Of a DNA stretch of 37,152 nt, positions 16,219 through 31,999 are shown in pieces; within the stretch, counting starts at the first letter, position 1; each line of letters begins with the position of its first letter. The DNA is from Candidatus Woesearchaeota archaeon (GTDB lineage Archaea; Nanobdellota; Nanobdellia; SCGC-AAA011-G17; JAFCDX01): the NCBI GenBank assembly GCA_018302265.1, contig JAGVZV010000009.1, forward strand, positions 1-37,152, in the 5' to 3' direction. Made by a program: the position numbers and the translations under genes. The notes beneath the pieces are model-generated. The model searched no databases. It was not told the DNA's origin and saw only the letters and a list, made by a program, of their open reading frames with translations.

Positions 16219-16674
16219 TTATAAAACCATTTTAAGAAGATAAAACACATCAAATCCGCTTAATAATAAAAATAATATAATCTCCAAAAATGTTCCTGTC
16301 TTAATAAAACCAGACACTCTAAAAGTCGTGAATGGATGCAAGAAATTAATTCCTTCTGGTGTAAATGCATCTATTAAAATATGAGATGAATAACCAACAA
16401 GTGCTGCAATTCCAAGCAGATTATAGCTCAAATAATTAAATAATAAGAATAATCCTATTGGAGGAAATATAGTATGTAAAATTCCTCTATGATCAAATAT
16501 TTTTGAAATAAATTTTACGTGCTTTCCTATTTTTGAATCCCTATTGTCTATATCGGGGACTAAAGAAACAAAACAAGCAACAAAAATAAACAACACAAGA
16601 CTTGATGGATGCAAGTATTTAGCAGATACCAAAGATGCCATCAAGGCAAATGCGACATGAGTGTAAAACATCAT
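16219..16674 (-). CDS. membrane-bound metal-dependent hydrolase (YdjM/DUF457-like)
   Basis: 151 aa with 4-5 TM segments, His/Asp-rich loops (LVPDIDNRDSKIGKH, GILHT, SHILIDAFTPEG). ATGA start/stop overlap with the upstream RPA gene (16671-16674). Confidence 0.6.
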   Translation of the reverse strand: MMFYTHVAFALMASLVSAKYLHPSSLVLFIFVACFVSLVPDIDNRDSKIGKHVKFISKIFDHRGILHTIFPPIGLFLLFNYLSYNLLGIAALVGYSSHILIDAFTPEGINFLHPFTTFRVSGFIKTGTFLEIILFLLLSGFDVFYLLKMVL

Positions 16675-17651
16675 TTTATTACTGACTGTGCTATTTCAAC
16701 TGGATCTGCCTCTTCTATTCTATTGGCTACGAACTCCAGCCTGTTAAACATCTCGTTTCTAGTAACACGACCCTTGATTATTAATTGTTTTCCAAGAATC
16801 TCCAATTTTAATTTATCAAATTTTTCGGGTGAAGTTTTTATTTCTTGTATTTCATCCATTGTTTTCTCCAGCAAGTATTCTGCCTGTTCTCTGAATGCCA
16901 CTATACGAATATTAGCTGTGGAATCATCAAAGAAGAAATTTACAAGCGGAACTTGCTTTGGGCTTATTACCCCGTGTTCAGCGCAATTAAAATTTCCCTC
17001 ATTACTTTTTACTCTTTTTCCGCAAGTAGGGCAGACTTCATAAGATCGTGGCTCAAATAATTGCACTACTGTCCCGATAATTTCCACATGGTCATCTGGG
17101 TTTAATTCAGATATATTCTTTCTTAGTAATTGCTGTCTTACTAAAACATTGTCTATGGTTTCTCCTTCTGGATTTATTATTAATTGAGCATTATTCCCAA
17201 AATGTAATTCTTTAAAGCCATTGTTTTCCTTACAGTAAGCTCCCTTGATTTTTACTATATCTCCCTCTTTTAATGATTTTAAGGCATCAATTGCAGTTTC
17301 ATCCCATAAGACTAATCTGGTTGTTCCAGTTTCATCACCTATAAGGATAGAAGCGACCCTTGATTTTTTTCCGTTTCTTATAAATTCACGGGTTTCATAA
17401 ATGCTCATAACCTTAGCTGTTATCCCGACTAGTTTCATTCCTGGAAGAACATCTTTTATCTTCAGAAATTGGGGTATTGTTATTAATTTCACCCCTAATT
17501 CATTTGCAACTATATGCGCTGCTCCTTCCTTGCTTATCAGATCAGAAAGGTCTTTTAATTTTATCTTTATCTTCTGGTCTAACTCTTCTTTAGAAATATT
17601 AGTCTTTTCTAGAATTACACTAATTATCTGTTCGTATGTTAAATTAAACAA
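16671..17651 (-). CDS. replication protein A (RPA, OB-fold ssDNA-binding protein with a zinc ribbon)
   Basis: RPA-like N-terminus (LTYEQIISVILEKTNISKEELDQKIKIKLKDLSDLISKEGAAHIVANELGV), OB-fold segments and CPTCGKRVKSNEGNFNCAEHG. The ORF is open to 17723, but the TTG at 17651 avoids a 58-nt overlap with the upstream gene. Confidence 0.8.
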   Translation of the reverse strand: MFNLTYEQIISVILEKTNISKEELDQKIKIKLKDLSDLISKEGAAHIVANELGVKLITIPQFLKIKDVLPGMKLVGITAKVMSIYETREFIRNGKKSRVASILIGDETGTTRLVLWDETAIDALKSLKEGDIVKIKGAYCKENNGFKELHFGNNAQLIINPEGETIDNVLVRQQLLRKNISELNPDDHVEIIGTVVQLFEPRSYEVCPTCGKRVKSNEGNFNCAEHGVISPKQVPLVNFFFDDSTANIRIVAFREQAEYLLEKTMDEIQEIKTSPEKFDKLKLEILGKQLIIKGRVTRNEMFNRLEFVANRIEEADPVEIAQSVIK

Positions 17652-17665
17652 TTTTATGACCCCTT

Positions 17666-18394
17666 TTAACTCAATCCTACAGATTCCAAAACAAATTTTA
17701 TTTCCATTTGCCGTAATGTGCACGGATTTTTTATTGATGATACATCAAACTTTATTAAGTTATCGCTTTTAGAACCTAATAATTTTGTTTCAACATTGCA
17801 AGCATCCACTGTCTTGCCATTGTTTATGCAAGTCAGATATTTTTTTGCCAGTATTACTGTATCAGTGTAATCTTTTATGTTTGACGCTATTTTTTTGTTT
17901 AAATCAACTTTAAAATCATATTTTACACTGATTATTGATTTATCATCTATAGTTTCAATCAAAATCGGGTCTGAAACAAGGAAAAATCCATCATCTGACA
18001 ACTTGAAGGTGTACTTAAGGTTCTTCAATCTTGTATTGTAACTTATATACCTTCTAAAATTTTCATCAAAATACTTGTTAAATGAATTTACCATATTGTT
18101 GTCTGGATTGCAATTATCCGGATTAAAACTCCAAAGGGGATAATTTCCCTTTAAACAGCCAACTCCTTTATTAGAAAGATCTTCCATGGAATCGCAAAAT
18201 GCCAGTCTTGCAGAATCCTCTACAAAGAAATAATCCTTTTCATTTTCAATCAGAGTATTTATTATAAATCCTGCTCTTTCTCCTACCAATTCATCTCTCT
18301 CCTTTATTTTATTCTTATAAAATGTATATCCTAATATGCCCACTATTAAAATTGTGAAAATTGCTATCATTGGCAAAAATTGTCCTTTTTTCAT
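17666..18394 (-). CDS. pilin-like protein (class III signal peptide)
   Basis: MKKGQ-FLPMIAIFTILIVGILGY from the ATG at 18394, which lies 1 nt after the upstream stop codon. Confidence 0.65.
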   Translation of the reverse strand: MKKGQFLPMIAIFTILIVGILGYTFYKNKIKERDELVGERAGFIINTLIENEKDYFFVEDSARLAFCDSMEDLSNKGVGCLKGNYPLWSFNPDNCNPDNNMVNSFNKYFDENFRRYISYNTRLKNLKYTFKLSDDGFFLVSDPILIETIDDKSIISVKYDFKVDLNKKIASNIKDYTDTVILAKKYLTCINNGKTVDACNVETKLLGSKSDNLIKFDVSSIKNPCTLRQMEIKFVLESVGLS

Positions 18395-18395
18395 T

Positions 18396-18944
18396 TTATC
18401 CTGCAACAGTATATTCTGTAGTATACGACTTATCTTGCTCTCCTGTTTCCAAAGAGACCGATATTGTAGCTCCTTCCTGGAACGGAATAAATTGTTTTGC
18501 GCTTAGCGAGGGTTCATCAAACTGCCCTTTTTCTGCTAACAGAGTATCTCCTATTTTTAATTTGTAATTATAACTTTTAAAAACCGCATCCATAATTTTT
18601 TTTGTTTCTTCTTTCATTGGAGTTTCATACTTAAGCTTGTTTATACTGTACAATCTTGCTAAATCAGAAATAGTAATGTATGTATTTTCTACAACAATTG
18701 GAGTTCTCAAATAGTTCAGCAATATAAGATCTAAATCAAGTCTGTCCTGCGCAGTAATACTCTGTTGTATTGGACCATAGGAGGGTAATTTTGATTTAAC
18801 TGCAAGGGGGGTTACAAAAAAAAACCAGTAAAACAATAATGTTAGTATAATTAGCAAAAATGCTACCATACCAAAGATTGCCAGTTCCTGACCCTTTTTA
18901 TTTAGTACGATCTTCTGCACCCCCACCACCCATGCTTCCACCAC
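18396..18944 (-). CDS. pilin-like protein (class III signal peptide); start uncertain
   Basis: LNKKGQ-ELAIFGMVAFLLIILTLLFYWFF. Possible GTG start at 18920. The track start at 18944 overlaps the upstream gene by 47 nt. Confidence 0.6.
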   Translation of the reverse strand: MVEAWVVGVQKIVLNKKGQELAIFGMVAFLLIILTLLFYWFFFVTPLAVKSKLPSYGPIQQSITAQDRLDLDLILLNYLRTPIVVENTYITISDLARLYSINKLKYETPMKEETKKIMDAVFKSYNYKLKIGDTLLAEKGQFDEPSLSAKQFIPFQEGATISVSLETGEQDKSYTTEYTVAG

Positions 18945-19422
18945 TTAATGTTGGAAGTATTACTGTTTGCTCTTGATTTATTATTGAATACTCAAATATG
19001 ACAGGTTTATCAATTAGCAGCAAATAATCTGAAGAAGAATAACAACTTAATTTTTCATTTTGTATTTTTGCACTGCACAATGGAAAATCTGAAATAAATT
19101 TATCTTTATTTATATATTTATCATTGAGTGCCTTTCCATTTAGATCTCTAAGAGTGACATTTATTTCAAGATTTCCAAAATCAAAACAATTTTCCAGCTT
19201 ATCCAGTTCAGATGTGTCTATAATTCCAAAGTGATCATTATAAGCAAGACAATTATATATATTATACATGATTAGTTGAGATTCGAATTTCTTTACATCT
19301 ATTTTTCTTGATAATACCATAGAAATACCGCCAACAATAACTAAGAGAATTATTATTAGAATACCTATTCTTAAGAACCACAAAGGCATATCCATTGCAA
19401 TATTAAATTGTCCCTTTTTCAT
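18898..19422 (-). CDS. pilin-like protein (class III signal peptide)
   Basis: MKKGQ-FNIAMDMPLWFLRIGILIIILLVIVGG. Confidence 0.6.
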   Translation of the reverse strand: MKKGQFNIAMDMPLWFLRIGILIIILLVIVGGISMVLSRKIDVKKFESQLIMYNIYNCLAYNDHFGIIDTSELDKLENCFDFGNLEINVTLRDLNGKALNDKYINKDKFISDFPLCSAKIQNEKLSCYSSSDYLLLIDKPVIFEYSIINQEQTVILPTLSGGSMGGGGAEDRTK

Positions 19423-19816
19423 TGGATATTTTTATAATATTCCCCTCCTTTTTGAAATTTATAAATAAACTTTTTATATCGTTGTTTTTAAAATCTAAAT
19501 CGCTAAAACAATACAATGAATAAGGATTTAATTTTTCATCCTGTTCATTTGCACTGATAATACATGGTTTATTATTAAATGATATTGAATAACCCTCTTT
19601 TGCAAATGATGTTTTTACATTCAAATCAATTGGAGATGCAGATATAGAATCTATTAGAAAGGCAGAATCTATTGCAAGCCTTTGCATTTCGTATCTAGCA
19701 TCTTCTCTTACTTGGACAATGAAGCTAATTACTATTGCTCCTACTACAGCAGCGAGTACTATATAGAATAAGAACAGATACTCTTTTTCCTGGCCCCTTT
19801 TATCCATACTAATCAA
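19403..19816 (-). CDS. pilin-like protein (class III signal peptide)
   Basis: MDKRGQ-EKEYLFLFYIVLAAVVGAIVISFIV. Confidence 0.6.
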   Translation of the reverse strand: MISMDKRGQEKEYLFLFYIVLAAVVGAIVISFIVQVREDARYEMQRLAIDSAFLIDSISASPIDLNVKTSFAKEGYSISFNNKPCIISANEQDEKLNPYSLYCFSDLDFKNNDIKSLFINFKKEGNIIKISNEKGTI

Positions 19817-19844
19817 AAATTAATTGAATTTATATTAGTTTTGA

Positions 19845-20945
19845 TTATGCAATTAATGTGCAATCATATCCATATTTATACATGTCCCCACAACCACCAA
19901 TTGTCGCAACAACCGTTGGATGAATTGGAAGGTCAATCTTAGCCCAATCAAAATTTGGAGATGGATCCCATTTTCCTATATCTGTAATTTGGTAATGTCC
20001 TTTGATATGCTCATCATCTAACTTTAGATTAGGATATCTTGGTACTATCTCTTGGATTAATTGTCTGATAGCATCATATTGTGCAGACGTATAAAGATCA
20101 TTTGCATTACCTGTATTTACTATTTCAATACCAATAGATCTAGTATTATAATTTTTGGCGTGCCAGGCTATTTTATTTTCGGGGGTTAGATAATAAATTG
20201 TTCCATCCTTATCTACAATATAATGTACAGAAAGTCCTCTCTGAATAAATGTATCATAAGCGCCTTTGAATGTAGATGACCCAGTATGATGTAACACTAT
20301 CAAATCAATTTGATCTCTCCCCCTGCAACCACCTGTTTTTAATGTGTCATAATAATTTAAATTTAAATTTATTGCTCTTTGCTCGAGTTGGAAACAGTCG
20401 AATGATTGTTTATCAATTACATCGGCTTCATTTGTATCAAATAACTGTCCAAGTGGAGTTTTTGATATAGTTAATTTATTTTTTTCTTTTTCATAATAGA
20501 TTATAAAAAAATCTTCTTCTGATTCCACATACTTTTTATCAAAACCTATTAAAGAGATTGAAGTAAAACTTAATTCTTTGCAATAATAGTTCTTTGTGCA
20601 GCTATTTTTTGCCTCGTCATACTCGCAGATGCATAACTCATTTTTATTAATCATATCTGATAATGGAGGGGCTATCCCAGGGAGATTATTTGCATTTTTA
20701 TCAAGTATAGCAAAAATGCAATTTCCCTTTCCAAACTTAATTGGAGTCTCAGATTGGACATTATCACCCAACACATTCAGTTCACTTACCATAATATCAA
20801 TAGAACTCTTGGATGCATCATCAATACATGCGGCACTTTTACCAAAGAACAAACTTGCAATTGCTTTTAATGGGAATAATAAAACCACTAAAAAAACTAG
20901 TCCGATCATAAGACCTATTAAAAAATTTTTAGTTCCCTCTTCCAT
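19845..20945 (-). CDS. membrane-anchored N-acetylmuramoyl-L-alanine amidase (Amidase_2 / AmpD-PGRP-T7 lysozyme fold) domain protein
   Basis: N-terminal TM segment FLIGLMIGLVFLVVLLF. C-terminal domain motifs are IDLIVLHHTG, SVHYIVDKDGTIY, AWHAKNYNTRSIGIEIVN and IKGHYQITDIGKWDPSPNFDW. The His317 to Asp327 spacing of 10 residues matches the AmpD zinc ligands as I recall them. Confidence 0.75.
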   Translation of the reverse strand: MEEGTKNFLIGLMIGLVFLVVLLFPLKAIASLFFGKSAACIDDASKSSIDIMVSELNVLGDNVQSETPIKFGKGNCIFAILDKNANNLPGIAPPLSDMINKNELCICEYDEAKNSCTKNYYCKELSFTSISLIGFDKKYVESEEDFFIIYYEKEKNKLTISKTPLGQLFDTNEADVIDKQSFDCFQLEQRAINLNLNYYDTLKTGGCRGRDQIDLIVLHHTGSSTFKGAYDTFIQRGLSVHYIVDKDGTIYYLTPENKIAWHAKNYNTRSIGIEIVNTGNANDLYTSAQYDAIRQLIQEIVPRYPNLKLDDEHIKGHYQITDIGKWDPSPNFDWAKIDLPIHPTVVATIGGCGDMYKYGYDCTLIA

Positions 20946-20946
20946 T

Positions 20947-21099
20947 TTATCCTGTCAAAGATTTGATAATGCTATCAAACTTACCAGCTATTGTGCTTGC
21001 GCCGCCAGTGAATATTAATACTAAGATAACAAGAACAATTATTGCTATTATAGTTAGTATAATTGTATTTAAAGCAAGCTCAGAACCTTTTCTATTCAT
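20947..21099 (-). CDS. minimal pilin-like protein (50 aa)
   Basis: MNRKGS-ELALNTIILTIIAIIVLVILVLIFTGG. Paralogous to the N-terminus of the upstream 120-aa pilin. ATGA overlap at 21096-21099. The longer track start (21144) is rejected. Confidence 0.6.
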   Translation of the reverse strand: MNRKGSELALNTIILTIIAIIVLVILVLIFTGGASTIAGKFDSIIKSLTG

Positions 21100-21458
21100 T
21101 TTGAACACTGGATTACACTGCACTCTATACCTATACTGCTGCAAGTCAGTCCTTTTTCGTTTTCATCATATATACCATTAGCATTTATATCAGCTTGGAA
21201 TTCAGAAAAGCAGAAATTCTGCATAAACTGATCCCTTAGTAAGGCACTATTTGATGTCTGGTAACTAGTACAGAAGGAATTACATCTAGCATTTGCTTCT
21301 TGGAGATCTGTTAATTGAGCGCCAAAAAAGGATTGGATTTTATTGGTAAGTGAAGCCATTCCACCTGTGAAAAATAAAGCAATGATAACCAAGACAATAA
21401 CAACAAGGATTGTAATAACTATTGTGTTCATAGAAAGTGATTGTCCTCTTTTATTCAT
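21096..21458 (-). CDS. pilin-like protein (class III signal peptide), Cys-rich C-terminus
   Basis: MNKRGQ-SLSMNTIVITILVVIVLVIIALFFTGG. Confidence 0.65.
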   Translation of the reverse strand: MNKRGQSLSMNTIVITILVVIVLVIIALFFTGGMASLTNKIQSFFGAQLTDLQEANARCNSFCTSYQTSNSALLRDQFMQNFCFSEFQADINANGIYDENEKGLTCSSIGIECSVIQCSK

Positions 21459-21486
21459 TTTAACACCTTGTTAATTATTTACTAAA

Positions 21487-22191
21487 TTAACTATTTAAAG
21501 GTTTTGGTGAACATTTGTTTAGAGAGTTTATAAAAGCCTTTCCCTCTTCTGATAGTTCATCCTTAAGTATGAAACAAATATTGTTACCCTTCTTGTAAAC
21601 CATTTTATTTCGGTCTAAAAAATCTAGGCTTACTCTTTCTGGTACAGGCTCTATTATATTTGAGATGCCCGAACCAACTTTAACTTCAGTAGCTCCAGTC
21701 TCATAAGAGAGTTTTATCGGGGATTCTGATAGAATTATATCTATTCCTTGTTTATTTGGACCGGTTATAATCTGATCTAATCCAGTTGTATAAATATTAC
21801 CGCTATCGTAAGTTACATAACAAAATATATTTTTCCCAGTCAAAGATTCTCTATTTTTGGGTATATTTGTTTCTTCTTTGGATATTACCATAGTATTCGG
21901 AGTTATAAAAGAGAGTACATACCCTGGAGAAAATGTCAGAATTTGTAGACTGCATATACACCCATCGTCATTGGAATCAAAACAATCTTTATACTGAGAA
22001 ATAATATCTTGAAATTCTCCTGAGATGTCTTTTACACTGTCTGTAGTTTGTCCTCCAAAGATACCATCTATGATATTATCTATATATTTTTGTACTCCTT
22101 CTGAAACATATCCTGCCTTCATTAAAAAAAGTACTAAAACTATTGCAACTATGACGATAATAATAATTTCTGGAACCTTTGATGTTGTCAT
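21487..22191 (-). CDS. pilin-like or N-terminally anchored secreted protein
   Basis: MTTSKVPE-IIIIVIVAIVLVLFLMKAG followed by a soluble Cys-containing domain. Confidence 0.5.
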   Translation of the reverse strand: MTTSKVPEIIIIVIVAIVLVLFLMKAGYVSEGVQKYIDNIIDGIFGGQTTDSVKDISGEFQDIISQYKDCFDSNDDGCICSLQILTFSPGYVLSFITPNTMVISKEETNIPKNRESLTGKNIFCYVTYDSGNIYTTGLDQIITGPNKQGIDIILSESPIKLSYETGATEVKVGSGISNIIEPVPERVSLDFLDRNKMVYKKGNNICFILKDELSEEGKAFINSLNKCSPKPLNS

Positions 22192-22198
22192 TTAATTT

Positions 22199-22354
22199 TT
22201 ACCCTCCGAATCTTAATAAACTAGCAAATTTTTCTAATATAGACATAATCTTTTCTTTTGCAAAATAAATTATTGTTAAAATAAATACTAAAACAAGCAA
22301 GGCTATGAACAGCTTCATTAGTGTTTCCCATGCAAAATCCCCTTTTTTGTTCAT
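22199..22354 (-). CDS. small pilin-like protein (51 aa); not in the supplied ORF track
   Basis: Hand translation gives MNKKGDFAWETLMKLFIALLVLVFILTIIYFAKEKIMSILEKFASLLRFGG. ATGA overlap with the stop of the upstream 280-aa gene (22351-22354). Ends in TAA at 22199-22201. Confidence 0.55.
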   Translation of the reverse strand: MNKKGDFAWETLMKLFIALLVLVFILTIIYFAKEKIMSILEKFASLLRFGG

Positions 22355-23193
22355 TTTGATTGACACCTTTTGATTATTCCATCTGAATTAGTAACTAATA
22401 ATTGTGCAGTAAAGTCTGTAGATGGATTGTATGCTGCTTCTCCTATTAAAAGAAATCCAGCTCCTGCTGCGCCAACCTTACAAAAAAGAGGGGCGAATGG
22501 AGCAGTTATTCCTCCCATCAAGGCTAATCCTCCAGAAACAATGCACCCAGCTAAAGGCGCGCCAATTGCTATTCCTACTTCTTGGAGTTTAGTAGATCCT
22601 AAAAAATCAAATCTACTCCCGCGATTTATTAAATATACTACATAAATGGGGTTGCTTAGATCAAGTTTATTATATTCATTCAGATTAGTTTTATCGAACG
22701 TTTTTGGGTATAAAAATTCAGCATAAGTCATCCCAGAACCAAGGGGTTTTTCTTTTAACAAATAGTCTCCTAATCCAGTTATTTCCATATCTTTTAGCGA
22801 GGGATCTGTTCCAATAATCTTGCTACATAAAAAGCAATAAGTTTCTCCAGAGAAATCCCTATGAAATAAAAAATCTATTTCTCCCTTTCCAAATTGGTCC
22901 CAACAATCATACATATCATTAGCTATTAATTTTTTTACATTTTCCAAATCCTTTTTACTTTTTATAAATTTATAATCAGTGCTACATCTCAAAGGAATAT
23001 CAACAAACTCTGTTTCAGGGGTTATACTCAATTTAGTAGTCGCTTTTAATTGAACACTCTGCTTACAAACTTCTTTACTTGTAACATCTTTGGTTATATC
23101 TGACCAGGTTTTAAGGCCGTACATCATTACAATTAATCCTGCAAGTGTAACAATCAATACAACCAGTACAGCTGTTGTCATTGCCTTTTTCAT
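22351..23193 (-). CDS. N-terminally anchored protein with a Gly/Ala-rich hydrophobic C-terminus, unknown function
   Basis: MKKA-MTTAVLVVLIVTLAGLIVMMYGL, a Cys-containing middle part, and a C-terminal GIAIGAPLAGCIVSGGLALMGGITAPFAPLFCKVGAAGAGFLLIGEAA. Confidence 0.55.
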   Translation of the reverse strand: MKKAMTTAVLVVLIVTLAGLIVMMYGLKTWSDITKDVTSKEVCKQSVQLKATTKLSITPETEFVDIPLRCSTDYKFIKSKKDLENVKKLIANDMYDCWDQFGKGEIDFLFHRDFSGETYCFLCSKIIGTDPSLKDMEITGLGDYLLKEKPLGSGMTYAEFLYPKTFDKTNLNEYNKLDLSNPIYVVYLINRGSRFDFLGSTKLQEVGIAIGAPLAGCIVSGGLALMGGITAPFAPLFCKVGAAGAGFLLIGEAAYNPSTDFTAQLLVTNSDGIIKRCQSK

Positions 23194-23306
23194 TATAAAT
23201 CACCCACTATCAAATAAACAAGTCCAATGACTATTGCAGTCAACACACCTGCAAGTATCAAGAATAAGATTAATTTATTCAAGTTATTTGGTATCATCTC
23301 TTCCAT
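23193..23306 (-). CDS. possible 37-aa single-TM micro-protein; not in the supplied ORF track
   Basis: Hand translation gives MEEMIPNNLNKLILFLILAGVLTAIVIGLVYLIVGDL. Its TAA stop shares one base with the downstream ATG (TAATG at 23193). Confidence 0.35.
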   Translation of the reverse strand: MEEMIPNNLNKLILFLILAGVLTAIVIGLVYLIVGDL

Positions 23307-23340
23307 GGTACATGACTCTGTTTATTATATATAAAACTTA

Positions 23341-25242
23341 TTATAGTGTTGCGGGTATTGATTTTAAAACAGTCGAGGCTAGCAAGCTGAACAATATTAT
23401 AACAATGAATGAAACCAAGGTGTATAGTATGGCTCCACGAATCATATTCTTACCAAGCAAGTAATCCTGATTCAACCTGTCAGAACCGTTCTCTATTCCA
23501 TTTGCTAGTATTGTAAGTATGAATATAATTTCTATAACATATATTCCTACAACCAACTGAAAATAATACGGGGAAATGATCTCGCTGACATTGAATATCT
23601 GAACAAACTGCTGCACATTGTTAAATCCGGTTGCATCATTGGTTGCATTTGCTCCATAATTAGAAAAAATATCTCCCATATTTACAATAACTCCAACTAT
23701 CATTGAACCAATACCAACAACAATTCCTGCAATAACAGGAGCCATGAAGGATATCTGGGATTTCATTGAAGAAACTATTTCTGATAGCAGGTCTTTTAGT
23801 CTTTCATTAACCCTGTGTATCTCAGAAACATAAGTAGAAATGCTAATCATGGCTTGAGCAGCTATTTTTGATCCCTTTTGCACACTTTCTATCAAGACCT
23901 CCATGGAGGATTGTATGAGCGAGGAAGGATAAGACAAAATTGCTCCGGTTTTTTGATTAAATATTGCTTCCTTGATTCCCATTCCAAGATTTCTTATATT
24001 AACAGACACTATTCTAAAAAAATTTCCTGTTGGTGTTCCAGACATATTTTCTGCTACAGTTCCAAATGCTATTTCAGCAGGAACTCCGTCAGATAATCGG
24101 TTTCCTAATTGGAATAAGGAAGAGGCAAATTCATTCTCTAATTTTTTTGTTTCTTCCCTTACCTTGATCAGACCCTTACTCATCTTTCTGTAATAAATAC
24201 CAATGCCAAGCGCGATTCCAAGCGGGACTAGGAGACTTATTACAAGAGACCCAAGACCAAAAGGACCGCACTCACCCCCGCATTTATAATCCAAAAAATT
24301 ACCAAACAACCCCCCAAAGGGCATATCAAAGTTAGGATTTATGACATGCAATATAATCGGAGACAATCCTACAAATACAAACAAGAGTATAATAAAGAAT
24401 GGAAATGTAAGTGATGCATGCTCTTTCAGCAATTGTTTTTGTATATCTGTTTCTCCGTATCCTGTCGGTCTCTTGCTTAAAATTTCATAACCATATGTAA
24501 AAACAACAATGGGCAGGATGATATCATACAAGAACGCAAGATGATACCATTTTATCAGCTTTCCCATGAACGAGGCAATCAATGGAAAAATAACTAACCC
24601 CAGTATTGGAAGTATAACCCCCAGCATGTGCAGCATTGTGATTGGATTCTTCAGGTCTTGTGCATAGTGCAGCATTTTTTCATAAGTTCCCTCCAGTATC
24701 ACTTCCAGCGCTTTGTCAAGTAATTGCAATCTTCTGGCTTCTGATGCCTCAAATAAAGAAGATCCAACCAGATGAAAAGAATTAACAAATTCCAGATTAT
24801 AATCTCTCCATGTTTCTAAATAAGCATCAAGTGCGTCCTTAATGTTTGAATATCTTCCGGATTCAATATCCCAGAATATCTTTCTCAGGTCAAGTGATAA
24901 TGGGGAGCCAATATGCAGTGCAGAAAATTTTATTGCGTGCTCTAAATTCGATGTGTGCCTCATGTACATGACTATATACAGCATGCACAAGACCATCTGG
25001 TTGCTTGCCCTTAATCTCCATAAATTAGACAGATATATTGGCAAATTTGATAATGGTTTTAATATAACTGCTGCAAGTATTACAAGTATTAATGGAAAGA
25101 AAACAGACACTTCAGAGAATATGTAAGTTACTGCTAGAATAACAAGCGCCGATAATATAACAAACACAGATGCAAGCGTTGCAAGACTTGTTGCTCCTGT
25201 TGGAGTCATTTGCAAATGCGCTGTCTCTATTGCCTTCTGCAA
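23341..25242 (-). CDS. type IV pilus/archaellum platform protein (GspF/PilC/TadC/FlaJ-like, two T2SSF-like repeats); true start unclear
   Basis: Polytopic protein with two helical cytoplasmic repeats, each followed by TM segments. Sits immediately downstream of the ATPase. The frame stays open for 75 further codons, up to the ATPase stop codon. Confidence 0.75.
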   Translation of the reverse strand: MQKAIETAHLQMTPTGATSLATLASVFVILSALVILAVTYIFSEVSVFFPLILVILAAVILKPLSNLPIYLSNLWRLRASNQMVLCMLYIVMYMRHTSNLEHAIKFSALHIGSPLSLDLRKIFWDIESGRYSNIKDALDAYLETWRDYNLEFVNSFHLVGSSLFEASEARRLQLLDKALEVILEGTYEKMLHYAQDLKNPITMLHMLGVILPILGLVIFPLIASFMGKLIKWYHLAFLYDIILPIVVFTYGYEILSKRPTGYGETDIQKQLLKEHASLTFPFFIILLFVFVGLSPIILHVINPNFDMPFGGLFGNFLDYKCGGECGPFGLGSLVISLLVPLGIALGIGIYYRKMSKGLIKVREETKKLENEFASSLFQLGNRLSDGVPAEIAFGTVAENMSGTPTGNFFRIVSVNIRNLGMGIKEAIFNQKTGAILSYPSSLIQSSMEVLIESVQKGSKIAAQAMISISTYVSEIHRVNERLKDLLSEIVSSMKSQISFMAPVIAGIVVGIGSMIVGVIVNMGDIFSNYGANATNDATGFNNVQQFVQIFNVSEIISPYYFQLVVGIYVIEIIFILTILANGIENGSDRLNQDYLLGKNMIRGAILYTLVSFIVIILFSLLASTVLKSIPATL

Positions 25243-25467
25243 TTTTTGTGCTTGATCTGGGTTCGGGCGTATAGCAATAACTGATTCTGCTCTCTCACAT
25301 AATTTTTCATAAAGCGTGTTTGCAGTTGGTATGGCCTCTTTCCTGAAAGTTGTATATTCACGGGAGAATTCAGTATCACTCGGGATTTCTTCTTCTAGCT
25401 TAAACTCCTTCTTGAATTTATTCTCGTACTTTTTCAGTATTTCTTCTGTCTCTTTTGAAATAGTAAT

Positions 25468-28400
25468 CTAACTCACCTCTTTACCGAATGTTCTTCTCTT
25501 GACCTCTTTTTTTAGTTCTTCTTCCCAGCCAAAAAATATTTTTTTACTGTCTAAAAATCCGTATTTTTGAAGAATCTCATCAGATATTTTGTGGAATAGA
25601 TCATTGAAGTAGATAACATTTACTGCTTCTAACAGATCAGGCATATCTAATTTTTTTGCATAATCAACTATTGTTTCTTTAATCTTTGCCCTTAGCAAAA
25701 TATTCTCCCAGACCGCGCCCCAATTACCAGCCCATTCTTTTATATTGGATGCTATTGATTTTACTATTTCTGATTCTCCGTTAATCAAAGCGTCTGTTGG
25801 CTGCAATGAATCAGTTTTTGCATCATATTTCATCAGATCAACAAATCCGTTTTCTGCCAGCGGATCATTCTCCCAGTTTTTCCTTACTTCAGTTATCTGC
25901 GTAACTCTTCTCCATCTGTGCAATCCATCAGGAGATTTTATTGGATTTGCAATTACAATAATATCAACTGCCTTGAAGCTTGTTCTTGGAACTTTTAAAT
26001 CATTAACAATTCTATCAAAAACACCATAAGGGCTATCGCCATGAATTGTTCCAGCAACAACATTTGCAAGAGCACCAACGCGCATTGCCTCGAATAATGC
26101 CAAGGCTTCTAAACTTCTAATTTCTCCAACAATCAGGGAGGAATCTCCTAATCTCAAGCTTGTTCTTATGCCCTCATCAGCAGCAAGTTCAGCACCAGCT
26201 CCTGCCAGAGCAGCACGAACCTTAAGTGGCTGTATATTATACCCCATTTCTCTTAATTTTTCTGTGCTTAATTCCATAGTATTATGCGCTATTATATTTC
26301 CTGTTAAGAAACTCTCACATTCTGGAACTGAAATGTCATAAACATAATCATTAAAATTTTCTATCTTTTCAATATCTCTTACTTCGTCCCAGAATATGTC
26401 TGAATTAGCGAGTATCTTAAGATTTTCAAGCAGGGGGTGTTCTATACAATTTTGTTGCAACATTTTGGAAAATTTAGATCTTCCAATATTACAATTACCA
26501 TGGATATAACTTCTATAATTAAAATCCTTAATCATTTTTTTCATATCTTTTCTATTTTCTAAACTTAAGGGGATTATATCTGTAGAATCATGGGTAGATG
26601 TCTTATTTGCCAGGTTATCTAAACTTTTGTTTTTATAACCTTGCAAGAATCCTATTTCTTTGAATAATTTAATAAATTTGTTAGAACTGATTGAAGAATT
26701 ATGGGTTTTATCCTTTCTAAAGTGAGTTATTCTGCTAATTATTCCGAATCTTAATAATAGTGTTTGAACGTCTTTTAGCATATTTAAAGAAGACAGTGCC
26801 AGCATTATTTCGGATTTTGATACGTGGCCATCTCCACTAAATAAACCCTTTAAAATATATTTTATTTGATCATTAGTTAAAGAAAAAACCCAGTTAGGAA
26901 TTCTTTTTGTATAAGCATCCCCTTTTAATTCTAAAACTTCTCTTAAGACATGTTTAAAGGTAACAGAATTTATCATTAAAGAAAATTTATCTGAATGCAT
27001 TTTAACTGGAAAATCTATATGATTTGCCAAGTTATAAATAATTTTTCTTTCTTCTTCAGTCACGGAAGAGAATATTATAGATTTTGAATCGTAACAACCA
27101 TCTGCTAACCACAACCCTATAAGGGTAAGCAAATCTTCAGTTATATCCATTTTTATAGGAATGCCCCTGGAATTACCCCTTATTTTTATGTATGCATCAG
27201 TTATTCCATTAATATTATACCCTAATGCTTTAAGGTCTTTTAATATTTTTATTGGAATAATTCCCTTTCTAAACCATCTAGATATTAAAGAGCGGTTATG
27301 TTTGTACTCTTTCCCTAGTTGTTTAATTTCATGATGGTAATTTTTTATAATTTCTTTAATATTTCCTCCATATACATAAGCTATTTCAAATTTATCTAGA
27401 TAATTTAATAAATTTATTTCTTTTAATTCCTTCCCTATAATGGGCAAAGATCTGGGTGTTGCTATAAAAGTACCTTTTTTAATTTCATTCACTTTAATTT
27501 CTGAAATTTTTGCTTCTGGGTTCAATCCAAGCAAAGAATGGTCCCCTGTTACTTTTATTTCCCTTCCAGTTCTTGTAATTATTTTATAGACTGGTTTGTT
27601 GACTTTGTGCCTGATAAATTTAGATATTTTCGCCGGCATTATTTTTCCTTCTTTGTTCATGGATAAAATTGCTATATCATTTTCATTACCCAAAATTTCG
27701 TGTCCGCTAAGATTGTACCAACAACCATTTTTTTCAATCAGAGAATCTATTAAATTTCCTATTGTATCTCTTTCCCATAAATTATTTTTTTTGACTATAA
27801 CTTCTGAATCTCCAGTAACACTATCTTCAACAGTAATTACCCTATACTTTCTCATTATTTCAAGCAGGCACGAATCAAGCAGCGACGTCTTTCCAGACCC
27901 ACGAGTTCCAGCTATCAGTAACGTCCTTGCACCATCTATTATGAAACTGAGCAATCCTGCACCAAGTGGAGATATCATTTTATTGTCCATAAACAATGGA
28001 AGTGTCCATGGCTTATCACGATGTCTTCTTAAAGCAAATCCCAATCCATACGGATTTAATGGCTTGGAAATAATTGCAATTCTTGCCCTTGAATTTGGAA
28101 GGATTAATTCTGTATCCAGAACAGGATTTGCCTCATCCAGGGGTCTTCCACTCAATAATCTAAATTTGGTTGCCCAGGATTCTCCATCATCAACGCTCGG
28201 GAAAATGTTAGTAACACACTCCTCGTAATCAGAATGCACCAAGAATATTGGATTCTGTCCTATGGGTCCGTTTATTGAAATATCCTGCACTTTAGGGTCA
28301 TTTAATAACGTTTCAATCAAACCAAAACCAACAGTGTAACGCACCAGAATTTCTGCTAACTCCTCAATCTCTTTGTAGGATATTTCTATATTCTGATGCG

Positions 28401-29316
28401 AGGCTAATTCAGTGATTAAATCACGACCTATGTTAAAAAATGTTTTCCTCATTCTTTCCGGGTCAACAAATTCCTCTGCTTTTGGCTTGTGCTCTGATAA
28501 CACATTTCTAGCAAGATTCAGCAGCATGTATTTATCCTCAGAAATCTTAAACTCAGGAGGATTCAGATGATACAAATATTTTATATCCTTTGGAACCCTG
28601 AATATTGTAACATCTGTTCTTTTATCAATAGAATAAGCATCAATCTCTTCTCCATGCATTGGAGGCTCGGCCATTAATCTGGTGTACATAAAATCAGGGG
28701 TTATTATTGGTCTTAACACTTGTCTGTAAATGGACCTATCACCAAGAGTATAACCTGCTGTATGTGGCATTGCAAGAGCCATTAATTTTGTCTGGTCTAG
28801 ATATACAAGAACTGTCCTTAATAAGTTGATATAATAATCCCTGCATCTTAAACATAATGGAGTTGTTGTCTTCCTTGTAAGAATTGTTTCTTCTCTGACT
28901 AATCTTTTCAATTCGACATAAGCACCAACCGGATCTGTCCTCAACAAATTCAAGATTATATGCTGAATCTGCGCTAATCTCCCCGGAAGACAAACCTGGC
29001 ACTCAAGAGTTGGAGCCATTGCCCCAAGTGTCAGAATCTTTTTTTGCTTTATGAAATGATTGTATATGTTTGCTATTTCTACAAGAACAGATGTCTGGGT
29101 AAAATCATACTCATAATTTTTTCCCATCTGTGAAAAAACAATCCTGGAAACTCCGGAACTCTGGGCTAAGAAATCAATGGTCTTAGACATGCACATGCTG
29201 CTATCTTCTATAGAGGGAGAATAGGGATAATTATTATAATTAACCCACATCACCTCTTCATTACCCTGCTTAACTATTTCATAGTCTCCGGGTTTTGTTT
29301 TCTTAGTGAATAGCAT
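25468..29316 (-). CDS. type II/IV secretion-family ATPase (FlaI/PilB/VirB11-KlbA-like), intein-containing precursor
   Basis: Walker A LIAGTRGSGKTS. Asp-box RVITVED|...|TMEL split by the intein. Walker B LRLGDSSLIVGEIRS. His-box VAGTIHG. N-terminal CxxC...CxxC (ECQVCLPG...LCLRCRD). 768 aa once the intein is removed. Confidence 0.88.
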   Translation of the reverse strand: MLFTKKTKPGDYEIVKQGNEEVMWVNYNNYPYSPSIEDSSMCMSKTIDFLAQSSGVSRIVFSQMGKNYEYDFTQTSVLVEIANIYNHFIKQKKILTLGAMAPTLECQVCLPGRLAQIQHIILNLLRTDPVGAYVELKRLVREETILTRKTTTPLCLRCRDYYINLLRTVLVYLDQTKLMALAMPHTAGYTLGDRSIYRQVLRPIITPDFMYTRLMAEPPMHGEEIDAYSIDKRTDVTIFRVPKDIKYLYHLNPPEFKISEDKYMLLNLARNVLSEHKPKAEEFVDPERMRKTFFNIGRDLITELASHQNIEISYKEIEELAEILVRYTVGFGLIETLLNDPKVQDISINGPIGQNPIFLVHSDYEECVTNIFPSVDDGESWATKFRLLSGRPLDEANPVLDTELILPNSRARIAIISKPLNPYGLGFALRRHRDKPWTLPLFMDNKMISPLGAGLLSFIIDGARTLLIAGTRGSGKTSLLDSCLLEIMRKYRVITVEDSVTGDSEVIVKKNNLWERDTIGNLIDSLIEKNGCWYNLSGHEILGNENDIAILSMNKEGKIMPAKISKFIRHKVNKPVYKIITRTGREIKVTGDHSLLGLNPEAKISEIKVNEIKKGTFIATPRSLPIIGKELKEINLLNYLDKFEIAYVYGGNIKEIIKNYHHEIKQLGKEYKHNRSLISRWFRKGIIPIKILKDLKALGYNINGITDAYIKIRGNSRGIPIKMDITEDLLTLIGLWLADGCYDSKSIIFSSVTEEERKIIYNLANHIDFPVKMHSDKFSLMINSVTFKHVLREVLELKGDAYTKRIPNWVFSLTNDQIKYILKGLFSGDGHVSKSEIMLALSSLNMLKDVQTLLLRFGIISRITHFRKDKTHNSSISSNKFIKLFKEIGFLQGYKNKSLDNLANKTSTHDSTDIIPLSLENRKDMKKMIKDFNYRSYIHGNCNIGRSKFSKMLQQNCIEHPLLENLKILANSDIFWDEVRDIEKIENFNDYVYDISVPECESFLTGNIIAHNTMELSTEKLREMGYNIQPLKVRAALAGAGAELAADEGIRTSLRLGDSSLIVGEIRSLEALALFEAMRVGALANVVAGTIHGDSPYGVFDRIVNDLKVPRTSFKAVDIIVIANPIKSPDGLHRWRRVTQITEVRKNWENDPLAENGFVDLMKYDAKTDSLQPTDALINGESEIVKSIASNIKEWAGNWGAVWENILLRAKIKETIVDYAKKLDMPDLLEAVNVIYFNDLFHKISDEILQKYGFLDSKKIFFGWEEELKKEVKRRTFGKEVS
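26281..27822 (-). mobile_element. 514-aa intein with a LAGLIDADG homing endonuclease domain (ATPase residues 499-1012)
   Basis: N-terminal block SVTGDSEVIV (Ser1). Block B KVTGDHSLL (TxxH). LAGLIDADG motifs LIGLWLADGCYD and ILKGLFSGDGHVS. C-terminal block VYDISVPECESFLTGNIIAHN followed by Thr+1. The exteins rejoin to the conserved VED-TMEL. Confidence 0.88.
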
Positions 29317-29398: not shown

Positions 29399-29755
29399 AT
29401 GGTACAAGAAGCTGAGACAAGTAATATTCTAGTTGACCTTAACACGCGAATTAGAGTTCTGGAAGAGAAGAACAGCCAGTTAAGGGAAAATTTACTGATT
29501 ATTAATCAAAACATGATTGAGGAATACAAGAGACTGATACAAGAGATAAAAACAATCAATTCTGATCTAAAAGAGACCAGAGAGGATATGCAAAATCTCA
29601 GGGAAATCGCCAAGCATGTAATAAAAGAGAGCGCGGGTTTTGCAAAAAAAGACTCTGTACTGGTTTTAGAAAAGTATATTAATCTCTGGGACCCCATGAA
29701 ATTTACAACAGAAGAGGATGTCCTAAAGATAATGGAACATCAAAAAAGAGCGTGA
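29399..29755 (+). CDS. coiled-coil protein, unknown function (FlaC-like?)
   Basis: 118 aa with heptad-rich sequence (RIRVLEEKNSQLRENLLIINQNMIEEYKRLIQEIK). Ends in LEKYINLWDPMKF. Confidence 0.6.
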   Translation: MVQEAETSNILVDLNTRIRVLEEKNSQLRENLLIINQNMIEEYKRLIQEIKTINSDLKETREDMQNLREIAKHVIKESAGFAKKDSVLVLEKYINLWDPMKFTTEEDVLKIMEHQKRA

Positions 29756-29760
29756 GATAA

Positions 29761-30297
29761 ATGGCTGAAGAAGAGTATAATGAAATAAAAGAGCAAGTTG
29801 GAGAGGAAGTAGAAGCTCCGGCACCAACACAGAATATACCAAGCGGGATGAGGCCATCTCTTATTTCTAAAAGAGCGCAAGCTGCTCCGATTGCTGAGGC
29901 TGGTTTTGAGGCTCCTCAGTTTGAAATGCCCCAGCCAATCACGCCAACGCCAGCAATATCAGGAAGGGCTGATATGGAAACAATAGAGCAGATAGCTGAA
30001 TCAATTGTCAATGAGAAGTGGGAAGACTTAATGTCAAGCGTAGGCAATATTGCCATATGGAAGGAAAAGGTACAGACTGATATTCGCGCAATAAAACAGG
30101 AAATTATGAGGATGGAAGAGAGATTTGAAAATCTGCAAAAAGCTATTCTTGGAAGAGTTGAGGAATATAATAAAACAATATCAACAGTCGGAAGCGAAAT
30201 GAAGGCCCTTGAGAGTGTTTTAGAAAGGATACTGCATCCGCTTGCAACAAATATCAAAGAATTATCAAGAATAACTGAGGATTTAAAGAAAAGATAA
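29761..30297 (+). CDS. coiled-coil protein with an acidic/Pro-rich N-terminus, unknown function
   Basis: 178 aa. C-terminal heptad region AIKQEIMRMEERFENLQKAILGRVEEYNKTISTVGSEMKALESVLERIL. Confidence 0.6.
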   Translation: MAEEEYNEIKEQVGEEVEAPAPTQNIPSGMRPSLISKRAQAAPIAEAGFEAPQFEMPQPITPTPAISGRADMETIEQIAESIVNEKWEDLMSSVGNIAIWKEKVQTDIRAIKQEIMRMEERFENLQKAILGRVEEYNKTISTVGSEMKALESVLERILHPLATNIKELSRITEDLKKR

Positions 30298-30816
30298 TTA
30301 TTTCTCCATTCTTGGAGCAATGAATCTTACTGAGAGTGAAGCTATTATAAGAATAAATATGGCTCCGAGAACTCTTGGGTGGAATAATGTTCTTAGTGTT
30401 TCACTTCCAATTGTTTTTGTTACATTAGATCCTGCGTAAGGAGTGAATATCTCCCCATAAACCTGTGTTATTCCTATAATCAATAATAAAAATGCAATAA
30501 CCATGACTGTCCATATGCTAAGATTGTTCCAGACAACTTGCTTTTCTATCCCCAAAAAAGTCAGCCCCATAAATAGTAATATTAAGAATACAAAAATAAA
30601 AACAAACCATGGAACGATGTAATTAATCAGGTCCACTACTCCTCCGGCAAATAAAGATACCAGTGCAATGGATAGTGCCACAATAAATTTTAATGTTTTG
30701 TTAGTACCCATCCAATCAGTATTATCCAGAATTATATATACCAAAGAAAAAATAAATAAGAATGTAACGAGTGGTAAAAAATGATACAATAATCCGGTAT
30801 CTAATAGTGTTGCCAT
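30298..30816 (-). CDS. polytopic membrane protein, paralog 3 of a tandem triplet
   Basis: 172 aa. The ATG lies immediately after the upstream stop with no gap. Topology matches the two upstream genes. Confidence 0.6.
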   Translation of the reverse strand: MATLLDTGLLYHFLPLVTFLFIFSLVYIILDNTDWMGTNKTLKFIVALSIALVSLFAGGVVDLINYIVPWFVFIFVFLILLFMGLTFLGIEKQVVWNNLSIWTVMVIAFLLLIIGITQVYGEIFTPYAGSNVTKTIGSETLRTLFHPRVLGAIFILIIASLSVRFIAPRMEK

Positions 30817-31362
30817 TTATTGACCAAATAATCTTGTGTACATATCCCTCGGTGTTTGTTGTTGTCCACTACCACCAATATATGCAACTACTACAACAAC
30901 TGTTGCAATAAGTATAATCCACGCCCTATCTCTTGAATCAGGCCTTAACCAGTAAGGAAGATTTAAACTAGTACCGCCAGATAAAGCCCATATAATAGCT
31001 ATTATACATATCACAAGTGCAATTGGTAAAGCCATTCCCTTCCATCCTTCTGTCTTAGCTCCAAACATTCCAGCAATAACTAAAAACATTAAAGACACTA
31101 GAATAAACAAAGAAACCTTTGGTAGGAATGAATTTATTATATAAGTTATCTCGGGCTGTGATACAACTAACAATCCCAATATTAAAGAAATAACTAAATT
31201 AATATTTGTTTTTGGCTTCTCTGTTCCGTGTTCTTTTCCAAATATCATTAATTTTTCAAGTATTGCAAATATTATTGTGAATATCAGCAAGAAGGGAAGA
31301 AGATAATCATAAACTCCCATTGCCTGTAATTCAGCCATTAATGAATAAAAATCTGTTGCCAT
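30817..31362 (-). CDS. polytopic membrane protein, paralog 2
   Basis: Shares YLLPFLLIFTIIFAILEKLMIFGKE...EKPKTNIN with paralog 1. Confidence 0.65.
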   Translation of the reverse strand: MATDFYSLMAELQAMGVYDYLLPFLLIFTIIFAILEKLMIFGKEHGTEKPKTNINLVISLILGLLVVSQPEITYIINSFLPKVSLFILVSLMFLVIAGMFGAKTEGWKGMALPIALVICIIAIIWALSGGTSLNLPYWLRPDSRDRAWIILIATVVVVVAYIGGSGQQQTPRDMYTRLFGQ

Positions 31363-31923: not shown

Positions 31924-31999
31924 ATTAAAGTATAGAAATCATTAATATATAAAAGTTATGCTTTGACTTTTGGGTGCAATAATATAAAAATAAGGAAAT

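Follow-up and report, generated by a model that had tools for sequence, protein, structure and literature searches.

A highly divergent type IV filament-like locus of Nanoarchaeia whose modular subunit carries exchangeable murein hydrolase domains

The DNA analysed here (the window, 37,152 nucleotides (nt) in length) is contig C22 of a groundwater metagenome-assembled genome (MAG) of Woesearchaeota/Nanoarchaeia, within the DPANN archaea, which comprises 589 kb in 44 contigs, is 82% complete and has a G+C content of about 33%. Homologues of the window genes stem from MAGs labelled "Candidatus Woesearchaeota" and "Nanoarchaeia", and the window DNA is present in groundwater metagenomes. Between positions 17666 and 29316 the minus strand carries a type IV pilus-like locus of 13 co-directional open reading frames (ORFs), consisting of a secretion ATPase gene (g01), a platform gene (g02) and eleven further genes (g03 to g13, hereafter positions 1 to 11) whose products are 37, 280, 51, 234, 120, 50, 366, 134, 174, 174 and 242 amino acids (aa) long. 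An original prediction made from the sequence had described these 13 genes, two of them encoding proteins of only about 50 aa, together with very tight junctions; all the ORFs are present, the two of that size being g05 (51 aa) and g08 (50 aa), and each of the junctions proved correct on reading the sequence. They include ATGA overlaps at 21096-21099 and 22351-22354, a TAATG overlap at 23193 and 1-nt gaps between g08 and g09 and between g12 and g13. Longer overlaps occur between g10 and g11 (20 nt) and between g11 and g12 (about 23 nt), while the other junctions are gaps of 7, 28, 34 and 37 nt. Several internal starts are preceded by Shine-Dalgarno-like GGTG or AGGA, and about 24 nt ahead of the start codon of g03 is a TATA-like TTTTATATATAA; in DNA so AT-rich, these motifs are weak evidence. 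We infer transcription of the locus as a single operon; the only RNA runs existing, tiny SOLiD runs from a related study, contain none of the locus sequence.

The first gene, g01 (25468-29316, minus strand, 1282 aa), encodes a secretion ATPase of the PilB/GspE/CpaF/FlaI superfamily with Pfam matches to T2SSE, Intein_splicing and LAGLIDADG_3. As predicted, it bears an intein: a 514-aa LAGLIDADG element occupies residues 499-1012 (Ser499 to Asn1012, followed by Thr) in the Asp box, and its excision rejoins VITVED/TMEL and restores that box. The resulting 768-aa extein scored 54.8 bits against PF00437 (T2SSE), and its Walker A (GTRGSGKTS), Walker B (LIVGEIR) and His box (GTIHGD) motifs are all readable, giving g01 the complete motif set of a hexameric secretion ATPase of the type IV filament (T4F, or TFF) superfamily. 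About 300 aa at the N-terminus lie outside the region matching known ATPases. Given that the best PDB matches of the extein were CpaF (97 bits) and Archaeoglobus fulgidus GspE (95 bits), followed by FlaI (62 bits), the earlier view of the ATPase as pilus-like rather than of archaellum type holds for the intein-free protein. A reading of the locus as an archaellum operon serving motility could draw on a partial match to the NCBIfam FlaI equivalog at 111 bits. However, this score is far under the 550-bit cut-off, FlaI ranks below both CpaF and GspE, and no archaellin, FlaF, FlaG, FlaH or FlaCDE was found among the 13 proteins and their neighbours (the genome as a whole was not searched for FlaH). 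Because g01 is nearer to CpaF and the Archaeoglobus GspE than to FlaI, the locus is not an archaellum, and together with the sub-threshold FlaI score this effectively refutes the archaellum reading, to which we give next to no credence.

All three T4F ATPase paralogues in this genome carry inteins (contig C1, 19059-22079; contig C2, 5704-8649; and 26281-27822 in the window). The intein of the C1 paralogue sits at the identical Asp-box site (VSIED/SVTGDS...IIVHN/TREL), and that of the C2 paralogue at another site, near the His box (...LLHN/SGHPSLGTMHAN). The orthologous ATPases of relatives mostly span about 745-760 aa and have no intein, indicating that the g01 intein is sporadic. A free-standing ORF of 287 aa with a LAGLIDADG_3 match (E 1e-6) lies outside any host gene at 15353-16216, near the intein-bearing ATPase locus.

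The second gene, g02 (23341-25467, minus strand), encodes a very divergent polytopic membrane protein of GspF/PilC/FlaJ type, 708 aa long when read from ATT. Its first canonical start is a TTG at 25242, which would give 633 aa (23341-25242), while the conserved N-terminus runs 75 codons further upstream, up to the TAG stop of the ATPase gene. These 75 codons (25243-25470) hold no ATG, GTG or TTG; the frame opens right after the ATPase TAG, in the same frame and with ATT as its first codon. Full-length homologues begin with Met exactly at this point, and contigs from two DNA runs carry identical letters throughout the stretch. In one relative (locus L016) 49 codons without a canonical start likewise follow the TAG. 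Initiation at ATT or ATA, reinitiation and read-through of the TAG are the options for g02. The protein has more than 4000 homologues, all annotated as hypothetical and devoid of Pfam domains, and g02 itself matched nothing in Pfam or NCBIfam; T2SSF was detected faintly, with an E-value of 0.09 at 23776-24111 and of 0.056 in one of 12 homologues, and the platform-family profile found no match among PDB sequences. The AlphaFold2 (AF2) model built from 38 homologues (mean predicted local distance difference test score (pLDDT) 77.5, predicted template modelling score (pTM) 0.71) is helical throughout and comprises long membrane helices as well as two helical bundles. In a Foldseek search of the PDB the only matches at a probability of 0.97-0.99 were cytoplasmic domains of EpsF and OutF, members of the GspF family, with target template modelling (TM) scores of 0.68-0.75 and a root-mean-square deviation of about 3 A; whole-chain E-values were poor, and the GspF signal comes from per-domain probabilities and target TM-scores. 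The platform identity that had been guessed from the sequence is thereby backed, and the modelled fold supports g02 as the GspF/PilC/TadC/FlaJ-type platform of the T4F superfamily, on structural grounds and with a faint sequence signal.

A profile of the platform family found one copy in 398 of the 401 genomes sampled from the phylum, all belonging to one class (Nanoarchaeia) and covering 279 of 281 genera, so the system represents a core feature of Nanoarchaeia and is not peculiar to this genome. For comparison 80 related loci were fetched, in 75 of which the ATPase gene adjoins the platform gene and in 24 of which the block from the platform gene to a downstream RPA gene is complete. The 24 complete blocks have a median of 12 ORFs, with a median of eight bearing the N-terminal motif described below, in mostly the same gene order, and with a recurring length pattern of about 40, 270-400, 50, 200-500, 120-140, 57, 160-680, 130, 160, 165 and 250 aa. 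Orthology was assigned by position between the platform and RPA genes because iterative hidden Markov model (HMM) searches with the subunits merged families through their shared N-terminal helix. The pilin-like repertoire had been called unusually large; the 11 subunits are there, but this number is the norm across the class and not an oddity of this genome.

Eight of the 11 subunits fit a class III signal-type N-terminus, in which a short leader ends in [KR][GA] before a hydrophobic stretch, as scored by a home-made FlaFind-like rule; presumably the strict published FlaFind pattern would pass only g07. Seven of the eight have the [KR]G[QSD] form that had been predicted. All seven sites are present, but the start given for the one reading LNKKGQ was wrong, its codon being CTA and the nearest start a GTG at 18920. 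Four other subunits had been taken for plain anchors, which holds for g03, g06 and g09 in this genome but not for g04, whose MKKA fits the pattern. In eight loci of standard gene order the motif occurs in all eight at positions 2, 3, 5, 7, 10 and 11 and in most at positions 1, 6 and 8 (six and seven of eight at positions 1 and 8, respectively), while by the same rule it is rare at positions 4 and 9, the spacer before the helix being longer at position 9. Judging from their orthologues, g03 and g09, plain here, belong to families that normally bear a leader. Thus, that the N-termini carry a peptidase-type site rather than a plain anchor, as the prediction had supposed, gains from the retention of [KR][GA] before the hydrophobic stretch in orthologous loci, and the class III pattern of the T4F superfamily is found here as a sequence pattern in eight of 11 subunits, conserved by position.

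The best conserved subunits are three small ones, whereas position 7 is the most variable. At position 3, g05 (22199-22354, minus strand, as are all the following; 51 aa, MNKKG/DFAWE) is a helix-only pilin-like protein with orthologues of 50-55 aa, a median identity of 40% and a weak DUF7554 match (E 0.005). At position 6, g08 (20947-21099, 50 aa, MNRKG/SELALNTIIL...FTGG) is likewise helix-only and a paralogue of the g07 N-terminus, with orthologues of 54-67 aa and a median identity of 41%. The 120-aa pilin-like g07 at position 5 (21096-21458, MNKRG/QSLSMNTIVITILVV...FFTGG), preceded by a Shine-Dalgarno-like GGTG 7-10 nt upstream of its start, ends in a six-Cys C-terminal cap and is a candidate for a major or core subunit. 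In its family of 26 sequences (median identity 34%), K3, G5, F30, G32, G33 and the six Cys are invariant or nearly so; a Pfam scan of the 26 homologues one by one gave only spurious transmembrane-type matches. The g07 profile matched a solved filament subunit, 8fk7 (deposited as 'Flagellin'), marginally (E 0.045), and the alignment is in register at the cleavage-type site, pairing KG/Q with KG/L and FFTGG with WFSGY.

The remaining subunits are more divergent. At position 1, g03 (23193-23306) encodes a 37-aa single-helix protein without a [KR][GA] site, corresponding to ORFs of 33-46 aa in related loci. At position 2, g04 (22351-23193, 280 aa, MKKA/MTTAVLVV) combines an ectodomain that contains Cys with a C-terminal segment that is hydrophobic and rich in Gly; it matched no Pfam or NCBIfam family and, among the downstream genes, gave the most direct tblastn matches (35 of the 80 related loci). 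At position 4, g06 (21487-22191, 234 aa) starts with the plain anchor MTTSKVPEIIIIVIV and also lacks a Pfam or NCBIfam match; its orthologues span 184-504 aa and carry the motif in two of eight cases. Positions 8 to 11 are all pilin-like: g10 (19403-19807, 134 aa, MDKRG/QEKEYLFLFYIVLAAVV); g11 (18898-19422, 174 aa, MKKG/QFNIAMDMPLWFLRIGILIIILL), whose start overlaps g10 by the 20 nt mentioned above, whose hydrophobic stretch follows a longer spacer than that of the other subunits and whose orthologues have 152-175 aa; g12 (18396-18920, 174 aa, MQKIVLNKKG/QELAIFGMVAFLL), which begins at a GTG and has alternative upstream GTG starts up to 18944; and g13 (17666-18394, 242 aa, MKKG/QFLPMIAIFTILIVG).

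A prepilin peptidase had been reported missing from view, and none is in the window; the genome search located one on contig C11 (11896-12756, 287 aa). It matches Peptidase_A24 (PF01478) with 55.5 bits in the genome scan and 51.9 bits as a protein, matches Arc_PepC_II weakly, and contains DVKTREVP and GGGDAKLL, corresponding to the DxxxxE and GGGD motifs of the A24 family. In three relatives an A24 peptidase homologue is encoded about 9-10 kb downstream of the platform gene. Removal of the leaders would fall to the C11 enzyme. One gene separates the peptidase gene from another, about 1.2 kb away, that encodes a 363-aa protein starting MKNKRGQ. About 36 further ORFs with class III-type N-termini, about 4% of the ORFs of the 589-kb genome, occur at sites including C1:15989-19043, C2:2391-5687, C2:10517-11736, C24:4484-6379, C11:9646-10737, C6:1246-2022 and C38:1-393; those on C1 and C2 form two clusters of pilins of the KG/ISPLIATVL type beside ATPase and T2SSF genes. 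In the window itself, a 73-aa protein (10790-11011, MEKRG/QVTTFMIAGLIILLV) with a weak TadE/G-like match (PF13400, E 0.004) might also serve as a substrate for this machine.

The subunit at position 7, g09 (19845-20945, 366 aa), is modular: its anchor (MEEG/TKNFLIG) is followed by a conserved Cys-rich module, about 165 aa long, and then by an Amidase_2 domain at residues 211-330. The domain scored 110.7 bits against PF01510, with a cut-off of 26, and its LHHTG, GIE and GH...KWDP motifs align with residues of AmpD and AmpDh2 that we take to be the zinc ligands and the catalytic Glu/Lys. Both the score and these residues place it in the Amidase_2 family, which includes AmpD, T7 lysozyme and PGRP, in agreement with the earlier assignment of one member as an amidase, and g09 is predicted to carry an intact zinc MurNAc-L-Ala amidase domain.

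A word-indexed search with residues 1-205 of g09 retrieved a protein (P0122) that is 46% identical in the module and bears Peptidase_M23 in place of the amidase, and a HMMER scan of 1.84 billion representative sequences gave 12 clusters. The aligned homologues have the leader, the helix and a set of six invariant Cys (C40, C76, C105, C107, C116 and C122) in common, while their C-termini diverge completely. These are M23 in P0122, P0128 and L017; Glucosaminidase plus M23 in P0125; SLT (lytic transglycosylase) in P0127, P0130 and L048; Amidase_2 in P0129; SLT plus Amidase_2 in L016; SLT plus M23 in L038; a weak M15 match in L026; and a dockerin with an unrecognised domain in P0132. The module HMM matched the position-7 ORF in 19 of 44 loci, and in 12 of the 19 it stands alone as a protein of about 160-200 aa, indicating that the base state is a small Cys-rich subunit onto which a hydrolase has been grafted. 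Two further cases involve class III-type proteins at or near the block end: one with Amidase_2 (L026:20229-21785), whose N-terminus is closely like the g13 family, and one with SLT (L044:20434-21918), assigned to that family by eye only. They indicate that grafting has taken place on at least two subunit scaffolds of the operon. Elsewhere in this genome, C29:5712-6128 encodes an SLT domain 33% identical to that of the L016 pilin-like protein. The AF2 model of g09, built from a 14-sequence alignment, is confident for the N-terminal module only, because the C-terminal domains differ across the alignment; it shows helices at 2-33 and 43-58 followed by eight strands (pLDDT 62-89). In terms of a modular pilin, grafted domains on a six-Cys scaffold of 165 aa are present, the leader is basic in the homologues and MEEG in g09, and the scaffold model matched no pilin fold.

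We found no Mur ligase in this genome, whereas the control search was positive in 13 of 14 reference genomes, so the substrate of g09 should be foreign murein. It is common for bacterial machines that cross the envelope to come with an SLT or amidase gene of their own, VirB1 and FlgJ being examples of such lytic enzymes, and by analogy the amidase might remodel the organism's own wall for passage of the machine, as do the lytic enzymes of bacterial secretion systems and flagella. We rejected this explanation and consider it very improbable, on account of the missing Mur ligase. The hydrolase is also absent from the block in most related loci, and archaeal peptidoglycan (PG) hydrolases are rare in pseudomurein producers (PMC12352652).

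Taken together, we consider it likely that the locus is a core, highly divergent T4F system of Nanoarchaeia that presents exchangeable murein hydrolases. The main weight of evidence is the genomic context together with the position-by-position conservation of the motif in orthologues, and not the motif alone. In the mechanism that we propose, the ATPase, whose identity is clear and which is presumably active once its intein has been spliced out, would sit on the single large GspF-like platform, and the C11-encoded peptidase would cut the short [KR][GA] leaders. The N-terminal helices could then mediate polymerisation of the subunits by the machine, giving a surface filament or a short pseudopilus. 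Its shaft would likely be made of the small, best conserved g05 and g08 together with the Cys-capped g07, while the larger, faster-evolving subunits would likely act as minor, priming or tip components. The seventh subunit is a modular scaffold, fitted with an amidase here and with M23, SLT, glucosaminidase or combinations of these in relatives. Such a scaffold for exchangeable enzyme domains fits the heteropolymeric or tip-decorated fibre that had been suggested for the locus, provided that a filament is formed. Given that this archaeon appears to have no murein of its own, the enzyme would act on bacterial walls outside the cell, either held by the filament or tethered to the membrane, for gripping, opening or feeding on bacterial partners or prey. 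Contact with bacterial cell walls and their local digestion is the most likely use.

Several points weigh against this interpretation. The existence of the filament, the cleavage of the leaders and the transcription of the locus are all three deduced from letters. Scans of all 13 proteins against Pfam and NCBIfam recognised only the ATPase, the intein and the amidase and placed none of the 11 subunits in a curated pilin family, and Foldseek comparison of the g09 N-module model with the PDB returned no pilin fold, leaving the marginal alignment of g07 with 8fk7 as the evidence for a pilin family or fold. The [KR][GA] pattern before a helix is common among ordinary signal anchors: the motif was found in seven of the 11 locus ORFs and in 36 of the 121 ORFs elsewhere that begin with a hydrophobic segment (Fisher p=0.04), an enrichment that is weak because basic-Gly N-termini are common and because the background itself includes the other pilin clusters of the genome, many of the 36 ORFs sitting in those on C1, C2 and C24. 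Furthermore, the leader of g09 reads MEEG, with no alternative start upstream, while all of its aligned homologues have basic leaders (mostly MKKG; also MKKA, MKAA, MSKG, MVKG and MKGD). This makes the processing of g09 doubtful, and it may be an uncleaved, membrane-tethered enzyme rather than a filament subunit. A recognisable hydrolase is found in the block of only about one-sixth of related loci, indicating that wall cutting is an add-on and not the core function of the machine. Finally, the absence of Mur genes is not absolute in a genome that is 82% complete.

If the 11 proteins were ordinary bitopic membrane proteins, uncleaved anchors in an envelope complex whose [KR]G follows from the positive-inside rule, with the ATPase and platform serving something else, then the lack of any curated pilin match, the motif frequency in the background (36/121), the motif-free g03, g06 and g09, the second hydrophobic region of g04 and the lack of a pilin fold for g09 would all be accounted for. 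By contrast, such a model does not predict that the distance between motif and helix is kept at each position in subunits that are only about 12-41% identical to those of the window (median per position), nor that the block is fixed beside a T4F ATPase and platform in 24 loci. In addition, an A24 peptidase has been retained, within about 10 kb of the platform gene in three relatives, and the g07 family aligns in register, marginally (E 0.045), with a solved filament subunit. We regard the bitopic-protein model as improbable.

A second alternative assumes no long pilus, and instead a short membrane-proximal assembly, similar to the bindosome or a type II secretion (T2S) pseudopilus, that displays or releases enzymes and binding proteins, in this case the amidase, on the cell surface. 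The many different subunits without a clearly dominant major pilin, the presence of enzyme-bearing subunits and the atypical g09 leader in this genome all suit it, and 'functionalised' T4F machines with class III-signal binding proteins have been proposed (PMC13705601). However, conservation is highest in g05 and g08, which consist of a helix only, and in the Cys-capped g07, all of which we take to resemble shaft subunits of the Flp/EpdE type (in part PMC13705601), and the sequence does not separate a short from a long assembly. We judge this alternative unlikely, yet far from negligible. A bolder version of the filament interpretation, in which a class-wide filament carries interchangeable murein hydrolase heads on minor or tip subunits and thereby grips and locally opens bacterial walls, is held only tentatively, as we lean somewhat against it. 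If it is true, many Nanoarchaeia would be episymbionts or predators of bacteria rather than of archaea, and the operon would be their contact apparatus.

The tight same-strand run extends past g13. An RPA-like single-stranded DNA (ssDNA)-binding protein (16671-17651, minus strand; Pfam OB-fold and Rep_fac-A_C) is encoded from a TTG start after a 14-nt gap from the g13 stop, followed through an ATGA overlap by a YdjM-family membrane protein (16219-16674, minus strand; Pfam YdjM). The RPA gene lies downstream on the same strand in the 24 related loci and is the sole RPA homologue detected in this genome. Its position next to the last pilin-like gene could mean that the machine is mainly a competence-like pilus scavenging DNA or nucleotides, with the hydrolase opening walls or debris and RPA binding incoming ssDNA; DPANN are thought to depend on scavenged nucleotides (PMC8204110), and pili and competence genes have been discussed jointly for groundwater ultra-small cells (PMC9938205). 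However, as the only homologue in the genome, RPA is most simply a housekeeping replication protein, and the conserved gene order spans about 22 genes around the locus, unrelated genes included, which points to general gene-order conservation. Pfam and NCBIfam scans of the locus gave no DNA-binding pilin (a membrane DNA channel was not searched for). The scavenging model is thus distinctly improbable; RPA as a functional part of the system was rejected as the default, and RPA and YdjM are probably neighbours and not machine parts. Upstream of the locus, at 29399-32287, lies a neighbourhood that recurs in 42-58 of the 80 related loci. It encodes a protein of 95 aa, a tandem array of three paralogous membrane proteins (172, 181 and 186 aa) and two coiled-coil proteins (118 and 178 aa) that are divergently transcribed. 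No significant family match was obtained for any of them, and they may be accessory parts of the system.

The locus bears on the question of how DPANN of the Woesearchaeota type make contact with other cells and of whether bacteria or archaea are their partners; to our knowledge no representative of this type has been cultured. A wall-cutting subunit provides a concrete candidate for the way in which Nanoarchaeia contact or attack bacteria. According to a 2026 census of archaeal T4F (PLoS Genet), ordered T4F loci are rare in DPANN genomes, which the census calls puzzling (PMC13705601). An ordered 13-gene operon with a platform nearly universal in its class contradicts that picture. The locus most likely escapes profile-based detection, its platform and all its subunits being too divergent for current profiles. 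In literature that we covered incompletely, no paper was found to describe the operon or pilin-grafted archaeal murein hydrolases.

Among known systems, the adhesive Epd pilus of Methanococcus maripaludis (T4F 'system 1'; PMC13705601, PMC3875500) is similar in the size of its operon (about 11 genes) and the number of pilin-like proteins encoded there, in leaders that end in KG followed by Gln, and in a main pilin without a globular domain, comparable to g05 and g08. It differs in having two TadC-like platform genes, as opposed to one fused 708-aa platform, and a dedicated EppA-type peptidase in or near its operon, whereas the window holds no peptidase. The locus described here, in turn, has an ATPase with about 300 extra N-terminal residues and an intein, subunits that bear murein hydrolases, and no match to any curated pilin family, those of the DUF361/Class_IIIsignal type included (Pfam, E<=0.01). 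It is not an Epd-type (system 1) locus, the KG/Q leader and the helix-only subunits being the only similarities that count towards one. Within this genome, system 1 is resembled more closely by the C1 and C2 loci, each of which has two T2SSF genes, than by g01-g13. The bacterial Tad/Flp pilus, with its CpaF ATPase, Flp pilin and TadE/F/G pseudopilins, shares CpaF, the best solved match of g01, as well as helix-only subunits of about 50 aa and several minor pilin-like proteins. By contrast, the present locus has no outer-membrane secretin or other Tad accessory proteins, and it combines an archaeal-type leader and peptidase with a single large platform and enzyme-bearing subunits.

The modular subunit itself has its closest parallels elsewhere. 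Modular pilins are established in bacteria, where PilB (vWA) and PilC (lectin) of Streptococcus sanguinis each join a functional domain through a linker to a small N-terminal pilin module, so that, presumably, the domain is displayed at the filament tip, with one scaffold bearing different modules across genomes (PMC8179133). There the domains serve adhesion; here the host is archaeal, the modules are catalytic murein hydrolases and the scaffold has no pilin-fold match, so the idea of the modular pilin would be extended from adhesion modules in bacteria to catalytic modules in archaea. The Sulfolobus bindosome, a 'functionalised T4F', is similar in that non-pilin proteins with class III signals rely on a T4F ATPase and platform for surface assembly (PMC13705601), but it presents solute-binding proteins and not wall-degrading enzymes, and the text of PMC13705601 contains none of the terms peptidoglycan, murein, lysozyme, hydrolase, M23 or transglycosylase. 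Three reports interpret extracellular murein hydrolases of Woesearchaeota, Pacearchaeota and other archaea as means of contacting or attacking bacteria (PMC8204110, PMC9723730, PMC12352652); the words pili and pilin do not occur in them, and they mention neither a pilin leader nor a pilus operon. Those enzymes likewise bring bacterial-type PG hydrolase domains to wall-less DPANN. They are large SLT proteins (up to 3000 aa) or free modular enzymes, whereas the hydrolases described here sit on a scaffold encoded in a T4F operon, which ties the known archaeal murein hydrolases to a specific machine.

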